From a virus (lineage: Duplodnaviria; Heunggongvirae; Uroviricota; Caudoviricetes), in the IMG/VR virus record IMGVR_UViG_2526164633_000031: DNA of 5,295 bases, one strand, 5' to 3'. Shown here one piece after another: positions 1 through 5,295 of the stretch (position 1 is the stretch's first letter; every line of letters begins with the position of its first letter). The notes under the pieces were generated by a model. That model was given only the letters and a program-made list of their open reading frames with translations, was not told the DNA's origin and ran no database searches. Both the position numbers and the translations under genes were made by a program.

Positions 1-1
1 T

Positions 2-82
2 GCCGACACAGAAGACACCGTGCTGGAAATTCAGCGGCTGGCTACAGTCTGCCGCGACACCCTGAATGGCATGACGAAGTAA
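2..82 (+). CDS. 3' end of an upstream CDS, 5'-truncated by the window edge; small protein of unknown function
   Basis: Frame 2 is open from the window edge and ends at TAA 80-82 (translation ...ADTEDTVLEIQRLATVCRDTLNGMTK*). The stop lies 6 nt before the rep ATG at 89, an arrangement typical of translational coupling in phage early operons. No homology recognised. Confidence 0.4.
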   Translation, partial: ADTEDTVLEIQRLATVCRDTLNGMTK

Positions 83-88
83 ATCACT

Positions 89-2911
89 ATGACGGCAGAG
101 TACATCAGGGACTGGCAGCAACCGCGCCACGCAGTGGGGCGTGAAGGAACGGGGATCCCCGCTCCTGAATCCGCGCTTTCCTCCTGGCTGGATGCCTACC
201 GGGTAGAGAACGAGCGCCGCCAGGAAATGGCTGATGCGGCGTTCTCCGCCACGCCGCTGGGCAACCTGATTAATAAAAGCCTGGACGCACAGGAAAAACA
301 GGACAAAACCATCACACTGGCAGGAGACGCCAGAAAACAGGCACGCGGCGCGGTGGATGAAGCCATGGCCTCGCTGCGCCTGCTGCCGTCCTATCTGCGC
401 GATCCGCTTATTCGCCACCTCTCCTTCCTGCGCAAAAAACAGGAAGCCGATCGCCGGAAAGGCAAAAAGAGCTGGCAGGCTGAACGCTACGCGCGCGGAA
501 CCCTGCGCAAAATATTCGAACGTCTGGACCGCACCGACCACCGCTGGCTGACACCGGGTTATCGCTCCCTTGCCGGACGCGAACGCCTGGATGATTTGCT
601 TTACCTGCCGCAGCTCAACAAGCACCAGATACAGACGCTGGCCACCATGACGGCGGCGATGTTCAGCAGCACCTTCGAAAAACTCTGCGATGGCTTTGGC
701 GCGACTGATGGCGAGCTGACCATGGATGTAACGCTGAAGGCGTATCAAATGCTGGCCCGCATGGCGTTACACCTGCACGCCATGCCTCCGCATTATGACG
801 CACTGACAACAGACAAAGACCGGAGGAACGAACCGGACACGGAGCTGCTGCCGGGCGCAATCCTTCGCCTGACCTGTGCGGAATGGTGGAAACGCAAACT
901 GTGGCTGTTACGTTGCGAGTGGAGAGAAGAACAACTCCGCGCCGCCTGTCTGGTTTTCAGAAAAACATCACCCTATCTGAGCCAGGACGCGTTAAGCGAG
1001 TTTCGCGCACAGCGCGAGAAAACACGCGATTTCCTGAAAAGTTTCATGCTGGAAAATGAAGACGGGTTCACGATTGATCTCGAGACGGTGTATTACGCGG
1101 GAGTAAGTAACCCGGTTCACCGTAAGGCAGAAATGATGGCCACCATGAAGGGACTGGAACTTCTGGCCGAAGCCCGTGGCGACAGAGCGGTGTTTCTGAC
1201 TGTCACCTGCCCGTCAAAATACCACGCAACAACGGAGAATGGTCATCCGAACCCCAAATGGAACGGGGCCACCATGCGCGACTCCAGCGATTACCTGGTT
1301 AACACGTTTTTTGCGGCGGTCCGCAAAAAACTGAACCGCGACGGTCTGCGCTGGTATGGCATCCGCACGGTAGAGCCTCACCATGACGGCACTGTGCACT
1401 GGCATATGATGGTCTTTGCTCATCCGGAAGAAATCGACAGCATCGTGGCCATCACCCGCGATATTGCCATTCAGGAAGACCGCCACGAGCTGGGCAATGA
1501 TATTACTCCGCGCTTTAAGGCGGAGTATGTCGACGGCTCAAAAGGCACACCAACCAGCTATATCGCGACCTACATCGGAAAAAACCTGGACAGCCGCGCC
1601 GTAGATGGCATCGACCCGAAAACGGGCAAGCCACGCGTTGACCACGAAACCGGAAAATCAATGGCCGAGAGCGTGGAACGCGCCATCGGCTGGGCGCGCC
1701 TTCACCGGGTCCGCCAGTTCCAGTTCTTTGGTATCCCCTCCCGTCAGGTGTGGCGTGAACTGCGCCGCCTTGCCAGCCAGATGGCACGCAACCCGGAAGG
1801 CCCGCAACGGCTGAAGGATGACGCAATGGACGCGGTACTCGCTGCCGCTGATGCCGGATGTTTTGCCACCTACATTGAGAAACAGGGTGGCGTACTTGTT
1901 CCACGCAAAGACTACCTGATTCGCACCGCCTACGACCTCGCAGATGAGCTGAACGATTACGGCGAGCAGAGTGTACAGATTTACGGGATCTGGTCGCCGC
2001 TCATCGGGGAGTCTTCCCGCGTGTGCACGCACCCGGATAACTGGAAGCTAGTAAGACGTAAACCGGAAGCGGAAGACAGCGCCCGCGAAAATGGTTTTGA
2101 CCTTCAGGGCGGCCCTGCCGCCCCTTGGACTCGTGGCAATAACTGTCCCCGTGTACAGGAAACGGACAACAACGGGACAGAACAGCTGGAAGAACGGCCA
2201 GCACCGTGGCCGCAGCTTCCTGACGGCGTTGACGTGAATGAATGGATGCGCTCACTGAAACGGCACGAACGCCGGGCGCTGATGCGTTCGCTGCGTGACA
2301 AACAGGCAAAAAACAGCAGTGATGAAATGCAGAACTGGACACAGAGCCGCAAACAGCCACGGCCTTTGCCTGATAACCACGAGTTACTCGCTAAAGAATG
2401 GCGGGAGTCTGCTGAATCTCTCGGCCTGCATATCGGTGAACAGCAGATGCAGCACCTGTTACGGGGCGGCAGTCTGTACGTCGACGGCAGCATCATTGCA
2501 CCGCAGGGATTTGAAATTGTACGCAAACCGGATACCCGACCGGACAGCCGGATCACGCAGCTCTGGCAGCGCCTGAGCCGTAACCACGGCGTAAGCAGCA
2601 CGGAGATCCGCCATAACCCGGTCGCCAGCTATCTGGAACAGCTGGGGGCATCAGACCCCGAAGCCGCCGCACGCCTGGCATCCACACTTCAGCAGGACCA
2701 GAACACCATGAAAACACCCGTTACCGTGCTTTCTGACATGCTGCGCGCCATCCGCGACGCAGAGCACGCACAGAGAATCAGTGAAACCACTGAACGCGCC
2801 CGCCGCAAAGCAGACCTGCTGCGGGGTGGCCTGACCAGTGGAAACAAAAAACAGACAGAAACGGGATTCACAAATCCCGTAAATGAGCAAAAAACGCGCC
2901 GCGATATATGA
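89..2911 (+). CDS. Rolling-circle replication initiator, P2 gpA-like HUH endonuclease (replication gene A protein family)
   Basis: Single 940-aa ORF filling more than half the window. Translation carries an HUH motif (GTVHWHMMVFAHP, His437/His439, nt 1397-1405) followed about 50 residues later by a paired-tyrosine motif (TSYIATYIGKN, Tyr491 and Tyr495, nt 1559-1573). This order and the Y-x3-Y spacing match the phiX174 gpA / P2 gpA superfamily. It is about 180 aa longer than canonical P2 gpA (761 aa, from memory). Confidence 0.85.
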   Translation: MTAEYIRDWQQPRHAVGREGTGIPAPESALSSWLDAYRVENERRQEMADAAFSATPLGNLINKSLDAQEKQDKTITLAGDARKQARGAVDEAMASLRLLPSYLRDPLIRHLSFLRKKQEADRRKGKKSWQAERYARGTLRKIFERLDRTDHRWLTPGYRSLAGRERLDDLLYLPQLNKHQIQTLATMTAAMFSSTFEKLCDGFGATDGELTMDVTLKAYQMLARMALHLHAMPPHYDALTTDKDRRNEPDTELLPGAILRLTCAEWWKRKLWLLRCEWREEQLRAACLVFRKTSPYLSQDALSEFRAQREKTRDFLKSFMLENEDGFTIDLETVYYAGVSNPVHRKAEMMATMKGLELLAEARGDRAVFLTVTCPSKYHATTENGHPNPKWNGATMRDSSDYLVNTFFAAVRKKLNRDGLRWYGIRTVEPHHDGTVHWHMMVFAHPEEIDSIVAITRDIAIQEDRHELGNDITPRFKAEYVDGSKGTPTSYIATYIGKNLDSRAVDGIDPKTGKPRVDHETGKSMAESVERAIGWARLHRVRQFQFFGIPSRQVWRELRRLASQMARNPEGPQRLKDDAMDAVLAAADAGCFATYIEKQGGVLVPRKDYLIRTAYDLADELNDYGEQSVQIYGIWSPLIGESSRVCTHPDNWKLVRRKPEAEDSARENGFDLQGGPAAPWTRGNNCPRVQETDNNGTEQLEERPAPWPQLPDGVDVNEWMRSLKRHERRALMRSLRDKQAKNSSDEMQNWTQSRKQPRPLPDNHELLAKEWRESAESLGLHIGEQQMQHLLRGGSLYVDGSIIAPQGFEIVRKPDTRPDSRITQLWQRLSRNHGVSSTEIRHNPVASYLEQLGASDPEAAARLASTLQQDQNTMKTPVTVLSDMLRAIRDAEHAQRISETTERARRKADLLRGGLTSGNKKQTETGFTNPVNEQKTRRDI
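2861..2880. repeat. 20-bp perfect palindrome ACGGGATT-CACA-AATCCCGT (copy 1), inside the 3' end of rep
   Basis: Read directly: 8-bp arms that are exact reverse complements around a 4-bp spacer, flanked by A-runs (gaaACGGGATTcacaAATCCCGTaaa). The same arms recur at 2934-2953. Confidence 0.9.
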
Positions 2912-2933
2912 AGCGCGCATAAAACAGGCAAAA

Positions 2934-2953
2934 ACGGGATTTCAGAATCCCGT
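2934..2953. repeat. 20-bp perfect palindrome ACGGGATT-TCAG-AATCCCGT (copy 2), in the rep-parM intergenic region
   Basis: Read directly: identical 8-bp arms to copy 1 with a different 4-bp spacer, again flanked by A-runs. Start-to-start distance from copy 1 is 73 bp, about 7 helical turns, so both sites face the same side of the helix. Confidence 0.9.
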
Positions 2954-2987
2954 AAACGATTAATTAATCAACATAAGGAAAAGCGAC

Positions 2988-3947
2988 ATGAAAATTTGTA
3001 TCGACGACGGCTCCACCAACATCAAGCTGGCATGGACTGAGAACGGCGAATGCCGCAACGCCATCAGCCCGAACAGCTTCAAGTCGGAATGGTCTGCGCC
3101 GTTCGGTGGCTCGCAGCCTGCGAACTACATGCTTGATGGCGTGCGCTATGGTTTTGATCCGGTCAGCGATCGCTTTGTCCAGACGACCGACACGCAATAC
3201 CAGTACAGCGATGTGAATGTAATCGCCATTCACCACGCGCTGGTCAAATCAGGCATCACACCACAGGAGGTGGATGTGGTTGTCACCCTGCCACTGAGCG
3301 AGTATTTCGACACAAACGCACAGCCGGACATGGCCAACATCAACCGCAAAAAAGCGAACGTTATGCGCCCGGTGGAGTACCAGAACGGTGAGGCATTCAC
3401 TATCCGTAACGTGCGGGTTATGCCTGAATCCATTCCGGCAGGCTTTAAGGCACTGGCTGACATGAGTCCGTTTGAATCCCTGCTGATTGTGGATTTGGGC
3501 GGAACCACGCTGGATGTGGCAAAGGTTCAGGGACAACTGGCAGGTATCAGCCAGGTGTTTTGCGATCCACACGTAGGTGTTTCACTGATGGCCGATGCCG
3601 TGCTGTCGGTGATGGCCACTAACGGTATGCGCACCAGTCACCACATCGCCAATACCATTATTGAACATCGCCATGATGAAGCCTGGCTGCGCCAGCACAT
3701 CCACAATGACGCGCATTACGCCAGCCTGATGGCGGTTATTCGTGAAAAGGAAGAAACACTGAAACAACGCGTGATCCGCGCGCTGGCGGGTTTTTCGGGT
3801 TACGGGCGGGTGATGGTTGTCGGTGGCGGGGCGGAGATTGTGGCACCCGCTATCCGCGAAGCCTGCGGAGTTAATGCGACTTTCATCGCGGACGGGGTGC
3901 CACAGTTTGCTCTGGTTAATGGGCTGTACGCAATGGACAAGGAGTAA
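2988..3947 (+). CDS. parM: ParM/StbA-family actin-like segregation ATPase (type II plasmid partition)
   Basis: 319-aa ORF with good RBS. Translation aligns along its whole length with plasmid R1 ParM as I recall it (MKICIDDGSTNIKL.., ISPNSFK.EW, YSDVNV.A.HHAL, QPDMA.I.RKKAN, FTI..V.VMPESIPAG, SLLI.DLGGTTLD, GIS...GD...GVSL, VMV.GGGAEI, LVNG.Y). The actin-fold phosphate and adenosine motifs are present. Confidence 0.9.
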   Translation: MKICIDDGSTNIKLAWTENGECRNAISPNSFKSEWSAPFGGSQPANYMLDGVRYGFDPVSDRFVQTTDTQYQYSDVNVIAIHHALVKSGITPQEVDVVVTLPLSEYFDTNAQPDMANINRKKANVMRPVEYQNGEAFTIRNVRVMPESIPAGFKALADMSPFESLLIVDLGGTTLDVAKVQGQLAGISQVFCDPHVGVSLMADAVLSVMATNGMRTSHHIANTIIEHRHDEAWLRQHIHNDAHYASLMAVIREKEETLKQRVIRALAGFSGYGRVMVVGGGAEIVAPAIREACGVNATFIADGVPQFALVNGLYAMDKE

Positions 3948-3951
3948 GCCA

Positions 3952-4263
3952 ATGACGACACCAACCAGACGGATAAGTTTCTATCTGAAGCCCGCCGCCG
4001 TCAAGAACGAAGGCGAAGCATGCGCCTGGCTGGACAGCCTTACACCAGAAGCCCGCAAAAGTGGTCAACGCGTGGCTTTTCTGGCCGGGCTGGCACTACT
4101 GAAAATGAATCCGGCAGAGGCTTACCGACTGGCTGCATGGGCTGATGATGAGGCGTTATCAGTGACACAAACCAGGACAGAACGCCCCGCGTCACAGCCA
4201 GTATCAGCCGCACAGATAACCAGTCAGATGGCCGGAAATATCCGGGCGTTATTTCCCGAATAA
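3952..4263 (+). CDS. parR: ParR/StbB-like ribbon-helix-helix centromere-binding adaptor
   Basis: 103-aa ORF starting 5 nt after the parM stop, with AAGGAG (3939-3944) 7 nt upstream of the ATG. The RRISFYLKP (beta strand) and LDSLTPEARKSGQRVAFLAGLAL segments resemble R1 ParR (RTIAFKLNP / LDSIPQGERSRLNRAALTAGLAL), and the C-terminus ..IRALFPE resembles ..LRSLFPKE. Gene order parC-parM-parR matches R1. The track ORF starting at 3817 is an in-frame 5' extension overlapping parM and is not used. Confidence 0.75.
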   Translation: MTTPTRRISFYLKPAAVKNEGEACAWLDSLTPEARKSGQRVAFLAGLALLKMNPAEAYRLAAWADDEALSVTQTRTERPASQPVSAAQITSQMAGNIRALFPE

Positions 4264-4268
4264 CACAA

Positions 4269-4292
4269 CATCAGGGCGCATCCGCCCTGATG
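4269..4292 (+). terminator. GC-rich hairpin (10-bp perfect stem CATCAGGGCG / CGCCCTGATG, 4-nt loop) after parR; possible weak terminator or attenuator
   Basis: Read directly. The stem begins 6 nt after the parR stop. It is followed by ACTTTAAC, a short T-run rather than a canonical U-tract, so intrinsic termination is uncertain and read-through into the next gene is plausible. Confidence 0.35.
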
Positions 4293-4326
4293 ACTTTAAC
4301 CCGGGAGCATAAACAAGGGGGACACA

Positions 4327-4659
4327 ATGCAACACATTGACAGAGAAAAAGCGCAGCGACTGATTGAGCGGATGGAAGCGCTGGCGAAAGAAGAAAATGT
4401 CAACATCCAAAAAATAGCTGAATGTGGCCAGATAGTTCTTCGTCGTGAAAAAGACCTCAAACAACTGATGTCTGGCGAAACCAGCAAAACATGGACTTCA
4501 GGTGAGGAGACGATTTATTGCAGCTTCTGCAATAAATCCCAGTACGAAGTCACAAAGGTGATTGCTGGACCGTCTGTTTACATCTGCAATGAGTGCGTGG
4601 ATTTGTGCAATGAAATTATCAGGAGAGAAGTGACAGACAAAAAGGGAAAAAACGCATGA
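4327..4659 (+). CDS. Orphan ClpX-type C4 zinc-ribbon (ClpX N-terminal zinc-binding domain) protein with a unique N-terminal helical region; no AAA+ domain
   Basis: 110-aa ORF with strong RBS (AAGGGGGA 4313-4320, 6 nt before the ATG). Residues about 62-100 (nt about 4510-4626: [40 protein letters not shown]) align almost position for position with the E. coli ClpX zinc-binding domain as I recall it ([40 protein letters not shown]). Cys65-x2-Cys68-x18-Cys87-x2-Cys90 matches the ClpX ligand spacing. The ORF ends right after the domain. Residues 1-55 are charged and helix-like with no recognised homology. Confidence 0.8.
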
Positions 4660-4754
4660 ACAGAAGTAAGCGCATCATTTAAACCGTCTTTCGCCTCCCT
4701 TTCCTGTTTCCGATACTAATGTCCATTTTCGCAGTAAAAGGACATTTAAGATGA

Positions 4755-5216
4755 ATGCACGAAAAAGCGGTACTGGCAGATAATCCAGAATTGATCCTGC
4801 GTGTGCTACAGCTGAGATTTGACGAGTCACTGTCGTACCCGCGCATTTCTGCGCAGACTGGTGTCAGCAAAACCGCCATTTTTTCTCTGGTGAGGCGATT
4901 TCACCAGGTATTCACTGACTGGCCTCTTTCCGGTGAATATTCCTGCGGGCAACTGGCCCGGGCTCTTTTCCCGGGGCGATACCCTTCAGCCCCGACCGTG
5001 ACTCAGCCTGTGAAAGCAGAGAAACCCCGCCGGAACCGATTTTCACCGGAGTTTAAATGGAGACTGGTTCAGCAAACTCTTTTACCCGGTGCCTGTGTCG
5101 CACAAATAGCTCGAGAGAATGGAATTAACGATAACCTGCTCTTTAACTGGCGGCATCTCTGGCGTAACGGTGGCCTGCAACCGCCCGGCGAACATGAAAC
5201 ATCGCTACTCCCGTGA
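4755..5216 (+). CDS. Transposase-associated DNA-binding protein, HTH_Tnp_1 type (IS66/IS3-family TnpA/OrfA-like)
   Basis: 153-aa ORF. The C-terminal half (RRNRFSPEFKWRLVQQTLLPGACVAQIARENGINDNLLFNWRHLW) fits the HTH_Tnp_1 pattern of IS first-ORF proteins (RR.YS.EFK ... GI..NLL..WR). A second HTH-like segment sits near the N-terminus (SYPRISAQTGVSKTAIFSLVRRF). Start choice is uncertain: ATG 4751 opens a 10-codon frame, ATG 4755 this ORF, and GTG 5011 is a possible internal start. RBS AAAGGA at 4737-4742. Confidence 0.5.
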   Translation: MHEKAVLADNPELILRVLQLRFDESLSYPRISAQTGVSKTAIFSLVRRFHQVFTDWPLSGEYSCGQLARALFPGRYPSAPTVTQPVKAEKPRRNRFSPEFKWRLVQQTLLPGACVAQIARENGINDNLLFNWRHLWRNGGLQPPGEHETSLLP

Positions 5217-5295
5217 CGTTAACTCCGGAGCCGGATAATAAAATCCCGGCACCAGTGCAGATACCTGAACAGATAAATACACTGCCAGACAGTCT
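5213..5295 (+). CDS. Possible 5' end of a downstream ORF overlapping the previous stop (GTGA overlap), truncated by window end
   Basis: GTG 5213-5215 overlaps TGA 5214-5216. That frame stays open to the window end (VTLTPEPDNKIPAPVQIPEQINTLPDS..). It is either a coupled next gene, as in tnpA-tnpB arrangements, or the continuation of a frameshifted transposase ORF. Confidence 0.25.
   Translation, partial: MTLTPEPDNKIPAPVQIPEQINTLPDS

Follow-up and report, generated by a model that had tools for sequence, protein, structure and literature searches.

The two 20-bp palindromes that lie on either side of the stop codon of rep in this prophage probably form the cis site (parC: a centromere, and probably an operator) for a type II ParMRC partition cassette, the cargo at the gpA-gpQ hotspot of a temperate P88-like phage in the P2 family. 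The window, by which we mean the whole 5,295-nt stretch of DNA that was analysed, is the early-right region of a prophage that resembles P88 (Xuanwuvirus, P2 family), with the genes in the order gpA-type rep, parM and parR. The site has an unusual layout: its four half-sites are inverted, no clear promoter lies within it, and the prophage that carries it is integrated.

The palindromes and the genes that flank them

In the window, the motif ACGGGATT-N4-AATCCCGT occurs exactly twice, at 2861-2880 (palindrome 1, ACGGGATTCACAAATCCCGT, with the loop CACA) and at 2934-2953 (palindrome 2, ACGGGATTTCAGAATCCCGT, with the loop TCAG). Both are exact matches whose 8-bp arms pair perfectly around a 4-nt spacer. 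Palindrome 2 starts 73 bp after palindrome 1, and each contains two inverted candidate ParR half-sites; exact copies of the half-site AATCCCGT are found in the window only at these four arms. No further copy of the palindrome was found within the window at up to three mismatches, and shuffled windows gave a mean of 0.01 matches, with two or more matches in none of 200 shuffles. Palindrome 1 lies inside the final 51 nt of rep in this strain, the rep stop codon (2909-2911) falls between the two palindromes, and 34 nt separate the end of palindrome 2 from the ATG of parM (2988). An earlier note on this DNA had claimed two perfect-arm palindromes 73 bp apart with no other copy, one at the 3' end of rep and the other just upstream of parM, and the coordinates and shuffles bear this description out.

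The true repeat unit is a 42-nt direct repeat on the plus strand that takes in the A-rich stretch upstream of each palindrome. Unit 1 (2845-2886) consists of the A-rich leader CAAAAAACAGACAGAA followed by palindrome 1, and unit 2 (2918-2959), which starts 73 bp later, is 81% identical to it; a repeat search of the window found nothing beyond the four half-sites in two inverted pairs. The 53-bp spacer between the palindromes (2881-2933) holds the rep stop codon, a weak promoter-like pair of hexamers seen by inspection (ATGAGC-16-TATATG) and a third, unlike GC palindrome (CGCGC-N13-GCGCG, 2895-2917), which lies around the rep stop, midway between palindromes 1 and 2, and shows a compensatory change (CGTGC..GCACG) in phage 520873. 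Across 2835-2990, AA dinucleotides have a periodicity of 10-10.5 bp, at a power reached by about 0.4-1% of 500 single-base shuffles. The whole conserved cis region, with its helically phased A-tracts, spans 2841-2987; this is our candidate parC, and it forms the left end of the parMR cassette.

Downstream of this region, parM (2988-3947, plus strand) encodes a 319-aa actin-like segregation ATPase (PF06406, 2.3e-82; PF21523, 1.3e-68), which is assigned to phrog_691 'partition protein' and is 47% identical to the ParM of IncFII R1-type plasmids. It is followed by parR (3952-4263, plus strand), which encodes a 103-aa ribbon-helix-helix (RHH) centromere-binding adaptor of the R1/StbB family (PF10784, 1.5e-24). 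This ParR is 34% identical to R1-type ParR over its N-terminal 56 aa (residues 6-61), and a profile built from the phage ParR family matches pB171 ParR (PDB 2JD3, E=0.0023). In 16 homologues of 43-100% identity, the N-terminal, DNA-contacting strand RRISFYLKP is invariant, as are N, I, F and P of the C-terminal tail NIRALFPE, which resembles the plasmid ParR tails ..NIKNLFPDDE and ..NVQHLFPDDD. The AlphaFold monomer model of ParR was poor (pLDDT 55.7) and lacked the N-terminal strand. As judged from these family and profile matches, the flanking genes are those of a type II (ParMRC) locus, with a ParM and an R1/StbB-family ParR. Directly after parR, a hairpin with a 10-bp stem (4269-4292) probably marks the right boundary of the cassette and the point where its transcript ends; the same hairpin is terminator-like in P88, and the homology of several relatives ends at 4263-4289. 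Since ParM is 94% identical between this E. coli prophage and a Hafnia phage, the most divergent relative found, and ParR is conserved, the system is under selection and needs a cis site.

Conservation of the palindromes and their linkage to parMR

Conservation was assessed in 101 distinct related sequences, which together contain 404 half-sites. Perfect 8-bp arms are specific to this strain and some others, and the near-invariant core is GGGAyT-N4-AATCCy. The core of palindrome 1, GGGAyT-N4-AATCCC, is retained in relatives from E. coli, Salmonella, Citrobacter and Hafnia, while that of palindrome 2 reads GGGATT-N4-AATCCy among the relatives. Within the half-site A-A-T-C-C-C-G-T, the bases TCC are conserved at 99-100% (400-404 of the 404 half-sites), the third C at 94%, the second A at 92% and the final T at 88%; loop bases vary freely, and either strand can lose pairing. 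Because all half-sites share the same TCC while loops are free and pairing can be lost, recognition of DNA by a protein fits these data better than an RNA stem.

Both palindromes are found in every intact parMR locus examined (about 100 distinct sequences) with one exception, locus L067, in which ParM is intact and the palindromes have fused into a single hybrid copy whose right-hand part is palindrome 2. Palindrome 2 is also the copy retained in a rearranged locus, L026. The spacing of 73 bp is present in 58 of 63 loci, and it survives in the Hafnia phage, where one insertion and one deletion in the spacer compensate for each other. Within IMG/VR, the motif occurred as a pair solely in P88-like loci. 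The motif was also considered as a general repeat element and rejected as such, the 40 non-P88 IMG/VR matches being single, unrelated and at about chance level. Searches for more distant phage-borne relatives returned only three near-identical loci in a scan of genome contigs and only P88-like loci in the IMG/VR scans.

The comparison with relatives further separates the palindromes from rep. The Rep protein of the Hafnia phage is 61% identical to that encoded here and stops inside palindrome 1, and both palindromes are kept. At the DNA level, identity to this phage is 57% in the rep segment 2501-2840, 78% in 2841-2987 and 88% in parM, and 2841-2987 is the only conserved sequence of the cassette (about 2840-4292) that lies outside parM and parR. 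Conversely, two E. coli prophages (L383 and L384) have the same rep as far as about 2795-2811 and different cargo, with the breakpoint at about 2795-2840; both lack the two palindromes and have different Rep tails. Where enough sequence was available in IMG/VR, parM followed this rep type in 77 of 77 loci. Whether the palindromes follow parMR or rep had been set out beforehand in the earlier note as a test that could refute its reading, and they follow parMR, being lost when other cargo is present. On this comparative evidence, the palindromes are part of the parMR cargo cassette and not of rep. The proposal that copy 1 has a dual use, as protein-coding sequence and as DNA site, is not supported by the comparison, as the Rep tail is unconserved over and beyond copy 1 and the Hafnia Rep ends within it. 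Since the tail is not conserved as protein and differs with the cargo, the final 25-35 codons of rep are best read as read-through into whichever cargo cassette is present, with no link between replication and partition. The comparison also places the left boundary of the P2 cargo hotspot inside the 3' end of gene A, so that cargo cassettes supply the last codons of Rep. Palindromes acting as sites of cassette exchange at the hotspot boundary were considered and rejected, as they are missing where other cargo cassettes meet this boundary.

Alternative explanations and transcription of the site

An alternative raised in the earlier note was that copy 1 belongs to the replication origin, and it is barely conceivable that palindrome 1, or the pair, is part of a phage origin recognised or nicked by the gpA-type initiator. 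In P2 itself, the annotated ori nick (29892) does fall in the 3' portion of gene A (28034-30319), but the P2 nick sequence GCGCCTCGGAGTCCTGTCAATAACTGT aligns to about 2120-2146 of the window, with a predicted nick near 2127. It thereby falls in a separate island of conservation (2105-2166), which is the only stretch whose DNA matches that of distant P2-like phages of Klebsiella and which reaches 92-95% identity to the Hafnia phage, within a rep gene of about 60-70% identity. The palindromes share no sequence with this block, no homology to the P2 nick GCGCCTCGGAGTCCTGTCAATAAC was found at them, and prophages with the same rep that lack parMR also lack the palindromes. With the nick homology about 735 bp upstream of the palindromes, the origin reading fails. 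As for a parC-like role, the position beside parM and parR and the joint inheritance with parMR speak for it, but for the operator half of that idea we could not recognise a sigma-70 promoter: no site in or near the palindromes passed a sigma-70 promoter scan, and in a hexamer search of the site the best pairs scored only 7-8/12, with no good -10 element. Nor was a plus-strand terminator-like site found between rep and parM, and with no clear promoter either, parMR is probably read from the phage early transcript.

The remaining rivals concern transcription, RNA structure and other proteins. It is unlikely that the palindromes are Rho-independent terminators of the minus strand, arranged as a series of three hairpins (palindrome 2, the GC palindrome and palindrome 1) that would block antisense transcripts from the cargo or late region before they reach gene A and the origin, a function that could coexist with ParR binding. 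Both palindromes are terminator-like on that strand, each having an 8-bp stem (-9.7 kcal/mol) followed by TTTTTG or TTCTGTCTGTTTTTT, and UUUUUU comes next after the middle GC hairpin on the same strand; with a T-run after each of the three hairpins, the palindromes also resemble intrinsic terminators, and a stem-loop with a U-run was found on the minus strand only. In the Hafnia phage, moreover, the A-runs at the palindromes (T-runs on the minus strand) are conserved, and the common copy-1 variant GGGACT retains full minus-strand pairing through a G-U pair. However, AATCCT, a common variant of copy 2 present in about a fifth of sequences, weakens the minus-strand hairpin to -3.3 kcal/mol, and we found neither a transcription unit that ends at the palindromes nor maintenance of the hairpins. 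No minus-strand gene ends there; in P88, the genes from A to portal are all on the plus strand, and better hairpins follow the portal gene (11024-11006) and parR (10160-10137). A loose terminator pattern is in any case common on the T-rich minus strand, with 14 minus-strand matches in 6.5 kb, and terminators require neither identical stems in both copies nor a fixed spacing of 73 bp. Prophages with the same rep and other cargo also do without these terminator-like palindromes.

Also very doubtful is that the palindromes bind another phage or host DNA-binding protein instead of ParR, for example a regulator of the cargo hotspot. The phage early operon does encode several small helix-turn-helix proteins, but such early-operon regulators vary among relatives, unlike the palindromes and the DNA-binding strand of ParR, and the palindromes are lost together with parMR. 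The palindromes are not known to match any of the site types of P2 C, Cox or Ogr. About as doubtful are plus-strand RNA hairpins in the early transcript, for example ones that would process or stabilise it and so uncouple parMR from the rep mRNA, or that would modulate translation of parM. On the plus strand, the region folds far better than its shuffles (-36.8 kcal/mol, z = -5.9), although any repeated palindrome will fold strongly. The finding of no promoter suggests that the site is transcribed within the early mRNA, and the copy-2 variant AATCCT keeps plus-strand pairing through G-U (-7.8 kcal/mol). Against this, plus-strand pairing in the frequent copy-1 variant GGGACT is broken by a C-A mismatch, the Hafnia phage has lost the outer two pairs with no compensating change, no compensatory double change was found in either palindrome among the 101 distinct sequences, and a comparison with Rfam families gave no match.

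Known partition systems, mode of action and distribution

The parC reading can be set against the plasmid systems to which the phage proteins are related. R1 parC (Dam & Gerdes 1994, PMC2241845) likewise lies directly upstream of parM-parR and is arranged in two blocks, with a spacer of 39 bp compared with 53 bp here; the coding strand is A-rich at both sites, the AA periodicity seen here is what would be expected of a curved centromere such as R1 parC (PMC2241845), and the R1 and phage proteins are homologous (ParM 47%, ParR 34% over the RHH domain). The sites themselves differ. Centromeres of the R1 family and of pSK41 consist of about 8-10 direct iterons of 10-11 bp (PMC2241845, PMC5016525), ten iterons of 11 bp in the case of R1, whereas the four half-sites here form two inverted pairs. 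The R1 spacer contains a strong ParR-repressed promoter and none is detectable in the candidate site, and R1 parC resides on a low-copy plasmid, whereas the candidate site overlaps the end of rep in an integrated prophage. Descent from R1 parC was considered and rejected: DNA similarity was not significant, the best local alignment being a ribosome-binding region that 476 of 500 shuffles equalled or bettered. A CCC core with A flanks in both the R1 (L020) and the phage half-sites is a by-eye impression with no statistical support.

In the segrosomes of pB171 par1 (ParR, PDB 2JD3, the structure matched by the phage ParR profile) and pSK41, an RHH dimer occupies each repeat of about 10 bp and directs its C-terminal tail toward ParM (PMC5016525). 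Their tandem direct repeats wrap a ring of about 12 dimers, which the four half-sites of the phage could not fill without non-specific spreading. Operators with inverted or mixed-orientation half-sites are used by the RHH repressors Arc and omega of pSM19035; there, neighbouring half-sites spaced by about one helical turn hold two RHH dimers (PMC5016525), as we propose here, and omega binds direct and inverted heptads equivalently (PMC5016525). Both belong to protein families other than that of phage ParR, Arc being a plain repressor and omega serving a ParA-type system.

By analogy, each 20-bp palindrome would offer two inverted AATCCCGT half-sites with centres 12 bp apart and could hold two RHH ParR dimers, as in Arc/omega-type operators. 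Because the palindromes are seven helical turns (73 bp) apart, they would face the same side of a segment curved by A-tracts. Four ParR dimers, possibly more if they spread onto the A-rich leaders, could then form a single looped complex that would offer the conserved C-terminal tails of ParR to a ParM filament end. With parMR probably expressed from the early transcript, the system would act on excised or replicating phage circles and not on the silent integrated prophage. Going further, we tentatively suggest, as a possibility with the odds against it, a minimal, promoterless centromere of two palindromes, on which about four ParR dimers, and not a ring of 10-12, would support a ParM spindle only when the early operon is on, after infection or induction. 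Such a spindle might push apart or position replicating phage circles, with a role in the phage life cycle and not in plasmid maintenance. The centromere itself would remain silent in the chromosomes of the roughly one in four E. coli strains that have it, where an active one would disturb chromosome segregation. Features that count against a centromere, as far as the sequence can tell, are the presence of only four inverted half-sites, the lack of a promoter that passes the scan, the want of significant DNA similarity to R1 parC, the terminator-like T-runs on the minus strand, the integrated location and the single hybrid copy of L067 beside an intact ParM. Should ParR bind the sites, their layout would challenge the R1/pSK41 picture of a ParM filament end captured by a ring of at least 10 dimers on direct iterons.

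Rousset et al. (2022, PMC9122126) reported a 'putative plasmid partitioning system' at the gpA-gpQ hotspot in about a quarter of the P2-like prophages of E. coli. Theirs is the cassette described here, at the same location; only its genes were noted there, with no cis site described, and in the literature searched we found no description of a centromere for the phage cassette. The cassette is present in 1370 of 5426 complete E. coli genomes, and the sites, if bound by ParR, would be the cis element of a partition system found in about 25% of them, including O157:H7 and O104:H4. They would also provide a defined 150-bp fragment for studying the function of a plasmid-type spindle in an integrating phage. 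In the complete E. coli genomes, 1530 of 1532 places of the cassette are chromosomal, and the suggestion of plasmid maintenance (PMC9122126) is not borne out by this chromosomal to plasmid ratio of 1530:2. The carrier is not a low-copy extrachromosomal element, and the phage encodes an integrase. A plasmid lifestyle was rejected on inspection of the 'plasmid' matches, which are prophages in large plasmids or misassigned chromosomes, together with one circular 'plasmid' record of 34.5 kb that is a whole phage genome.

A parMR cassette in the gpA-gpQ hotspot

By megablast, the window matches P88-like phages of the P2 family (Peduoviridae, Xuanwuvirus), with phage P88 itself 97% identical over positions 1-4665. 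ORF and Pfam scans place rep, which encodes a gpA-type replication endonuclease of 940 aa (PF05840), at 89-2911, followed by parM at 2988-3947 (PF06406 and PF21523), parR at 3952-4263 (103 aa; PF10784, the StbB/R1 ParR family) and, at 4327-4659, an ORF with a ClpX zinc finger only. Since the gene order runs from the early operon through A, parM, parR and variable cargo to the portal gene Q on the opposite strand, parMR lies at the end next to A in the known gpA-gpQ cargo hotspot, in which a 'putative plasmid partitioning system', with no cis site described, has been reported for about a quarter of P2-like prophages (Rousset et al., PMC9122126).

The parMR cassette extends from about 2840 to 4292. 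Directly 3' of parR lies a terminator-like hairpin with a 10-bp stem (CATCAGGGCG-CATC-CGCCCTGATG, 4269-4292), which is also the right edge of the cassette in several relatives. The left boundary of the hotspot falls within the 3' end of gene A, at about 2795-2840 in the window and at 3596-3660 and 3590-3640 in L383 and L384, two E. coli prophages with the same rep and other cargo. Each cargo cassette, whether it carries parMR, genes for an AAA ATPase and an S8 peptidase, or three ORFs on the minus strand, completes Rep with 15-35 codons and a stop codon of its own. The product of 4327-4659, which has a conserved counterpart in P88 gp19, is 110 aa long and amounts to little more than a ClpX-type C4 zinc finger (PF06689, 8e-18; phrog_6797) without the ATPase domain; it might act by ClpX adaptor mimicry or interference. 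The cargo region also contains an inserted IS66-family element (about 4660-5295) with an accessory tnpA at 4755-5216; P88 homology ends at 4665, and from 4645-4666 onward the sequence is homologous to many IS66 copies on plasmids.

ParM is 47% identical to an IncFII R1-type ParM, and ParR is 34% identical to R1-type ParR over the RHH domain; a profile of the phage ParR family also matches the solved pB171 ParR (2JD3). Across 16 ParR homologues (43-100% identity), no change is seen in the N-terminal recognition strand, RRISFYLKP; the C-terminal tail, NIRALFPE, is like those of plasmid ParR proteins and has four invariant positions. A partition system with these features needs a cis site, and the only conserved stretch of the cassette outside parM and parR is 2841-2987. 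In the chimeric parR genes of 569R5, 705R2 and other P88-like phages (6952-7266 in the related locus L006), DNA is shared up to window position 4006, that is, over the first 18 codons (3952-4006), DNA-binding strand included; beyond this point the ParR protein is only about 52% identical, yet the same short tail motif stands at the end.

The paired palindromes upstream of parM

Within this stretch, the two palindromes described in the earlier note lie at 2861-2880 and 2934-2953, with perfect 8-bp arms and 73 bp from start to start; the window holds no further copy, even when three mismatches are allowed, and two matches arose in none of 200 dinucleotide shuffles. Each is part of a longer direct repeat of 42 nt (2845-2886 and 2918-2959, 81% identity) that also takes in an A-rich leader, and AA dinucleotides across 2835-2990 recur with a period of 10-10.5 bp, at a power reached by about 0.4-1% of 500 single-base shuffles. 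Midway between the two, and centred on the rep stop codon, is a GC palindrome, CGCGC-N13-GCGCG (2895-2917), which carries the compensatory pair CGTGC..GCACG in phage 520873, pairs via G-T in a Hafnia phage and is followed by TTTTTT on the minus strand.

We compared about 220 loci, comprising 101 distinct sequences, from E. coli, E. albertii, Salmonella, Citrobacter and Hafnia; because these relatives form a tight clade, the conservation among them has limited power. Both sites are present in every intact parMR-carrying relative collected except one, L067 (IMG/VR 2657245439_000011), from which exactly one 73-bp repeat unit is missing at about 1480-1540, so that a single hybrid palindrome stands with an intact ParM of 319 aa. 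A spacing other than 73 bp was seen at five loci, two of them with a truncated parM. In the relative L026 (1440-1530), foreign DNA reaches as far as the A-run preceding copy 2, and parM is truncated. The half-site consensus of the 101 sequences is AATCCCGT, in which TCC is kept in 400-404 of the 404 half-sites and the four loop bases vary freely. Perfect arms hold for the two copies in the window but not as a general feature: GGGACT in copy 1 and AATCCT in copy 2 are frequent variants, and in the Hafnia phage the outer two pairs are gone without compensation. In IMG/VR the paired motif is confined to P88-like loci, the 40 other matches being single, unrelated sequences.

Four agreeing lines of sequence comparison indicate that the palindromes belong to parMR, the strongest evidence coming from the Hafnia phage, L013, together with the two prophages that join the same rep to other cargo. 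The Rep, ParM and ParR proteins of L013 are 61%, 94% and 75% identical to those of the window. At the DNA level, identity is 57% in rep 2501-2840, rises to 78% in 2841-2987 and reaches 88% in parM. DNA is here conserved where the Rep protein is not, as the L013 Rep ends in ..KQKRDS*, the stop codon falling within the palindrome 1 loop, and the 73-bp spacing is retained although the spacer has one insertion and one deletion. The earlier note had named palindromes kept by homologous elements that lack parMR as an observation that would speak against a centromere. In L383 and L384 the match to this rep ends at about 2811 and about 2795 of the window, and what follows is the ATPase and peptidase genes or the three minus-strand ORFs; their Rep tails are short and unrelated, both lack the palindromes, and the parC reading comes through. 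Places that have this rep type show the parC-parM junction in about 94% of cases (1443/1529), and in another relative, L385, a plain deletion from mid-spacer to beyond parR has left copy 1 as a relic.

Origin, RNA hairpin or centromere

An embedded replication origin, which the earlier note gave as the other reading of the palindromes, is better placed elsewhere in rep. In the P2 record the nick is annotated at 29892, within gene A and 427 bp before the A stop, and its sequence, GCGCCTCGGAGTCCTGTCAATAACTGT, aligns both as protein and as DNA to window positions of about 2120-2146, which predicts a nick near 2126/2127. The block around it, 2105-2166, is the only stretch with a DNA-level match to distant P2-like phages of Klebsiella (Reipivirus) and forms an island of 92-95% identity with the Hafnia phage, against about 60-70% in the rest of rep. 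By this alignment and the conserved island, the phage probably has its replication origin at 2105-2166, which has no relation to palindrome 1 and precedes it by about 735 bp.

The main rival is that the palindromes are minus-strand terminators, since T-runs after both of them and the middle hairpin give terminator-like scores on that strand. However, this T-rich strand has many matches to a loose terminator pattern, no minus-strand unit ends at the palindromes, and better hairpins lie just past the portal gene and past parR. The frequent copy-2 variant cuts the minus-strand hairpin to -3.3 kcal/mol, and termination would leave the identical stems and the fixed spacing unexplained. Hairpins in the plus-strand RNA, a further rival, find no Rfam family match; their pairing is disrupted by the common copy-1 variant, and compensatory double changes occur in neither palindrome. 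One-sided changes yield minus-strand G-U pairs in copy 1 and plus-strand ones in copy 2, so that protection is consistent for neither strand of RNA, in keeping with recognition at the level of the DNA duplex.

Set beside known systems, the locus has the genes that define type II par loci and a repeated site upstream of parM, but lacks their array of about ten direct iterons, has no significant DNA similarity to R1 parC and does not lie on a plasmid. On these sequence features we rate the candidate parC as a variant within type II par loci.

A predicted ParR-DNA complex and its genomic setting

In the mechanism that we propose, each palindrome would be bound by two RHH ParR dimers, with half-site centres 12 bp apart; for RHH proteins such as omega, direct and inverted repeats can serve equally (PMC5016525). 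As seven helical turns separate the palindromes on a segment that is curved and has phased A-tracts, a looped ParR-DNA complex, comparable to the U-shaped ParR-parC complex of R1 (PMC2241845), would offer the ParR tails to ParM. A promoter scan for the internal autoregulated promoter typical of type II par loci detected no sigma-70 promoter in or near the site, and a scan between rep and parM found no plus-strand terminator-like site, so that the parMR operon probably belongs to the early transcript and stays silent in lysogens, a timing that we infer from these scans.

Such silence would make sense given where the rep-parC-parM junction occurs: it is found in 1370 of 5426 complete E. coli genomes, O157:H7 and O104:H4 strains included, in up to 3 copies per genome, and its 1532 places are chromosomal in 1530 cases and plasmid in 2, with no sign of a plasmid lifestyle. 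The related locus L004 (NZ_CP148288.1, 34,461 bp, circular), which was submitted as a plasmid of E. coli, comprises an entire P88-like phage genome, including integrase, repressor and the full set of structural genes, and could be an excised or replicating phage form picked up by the assembly. Another, L010 (NZ_JBQPOM010000071.1), is a contig labelled Vagococcus sp. (Firmicutes) in which this enterobacterial prophage region occurs with a 97% identical ParM, probably through contamination or a mixed culture.
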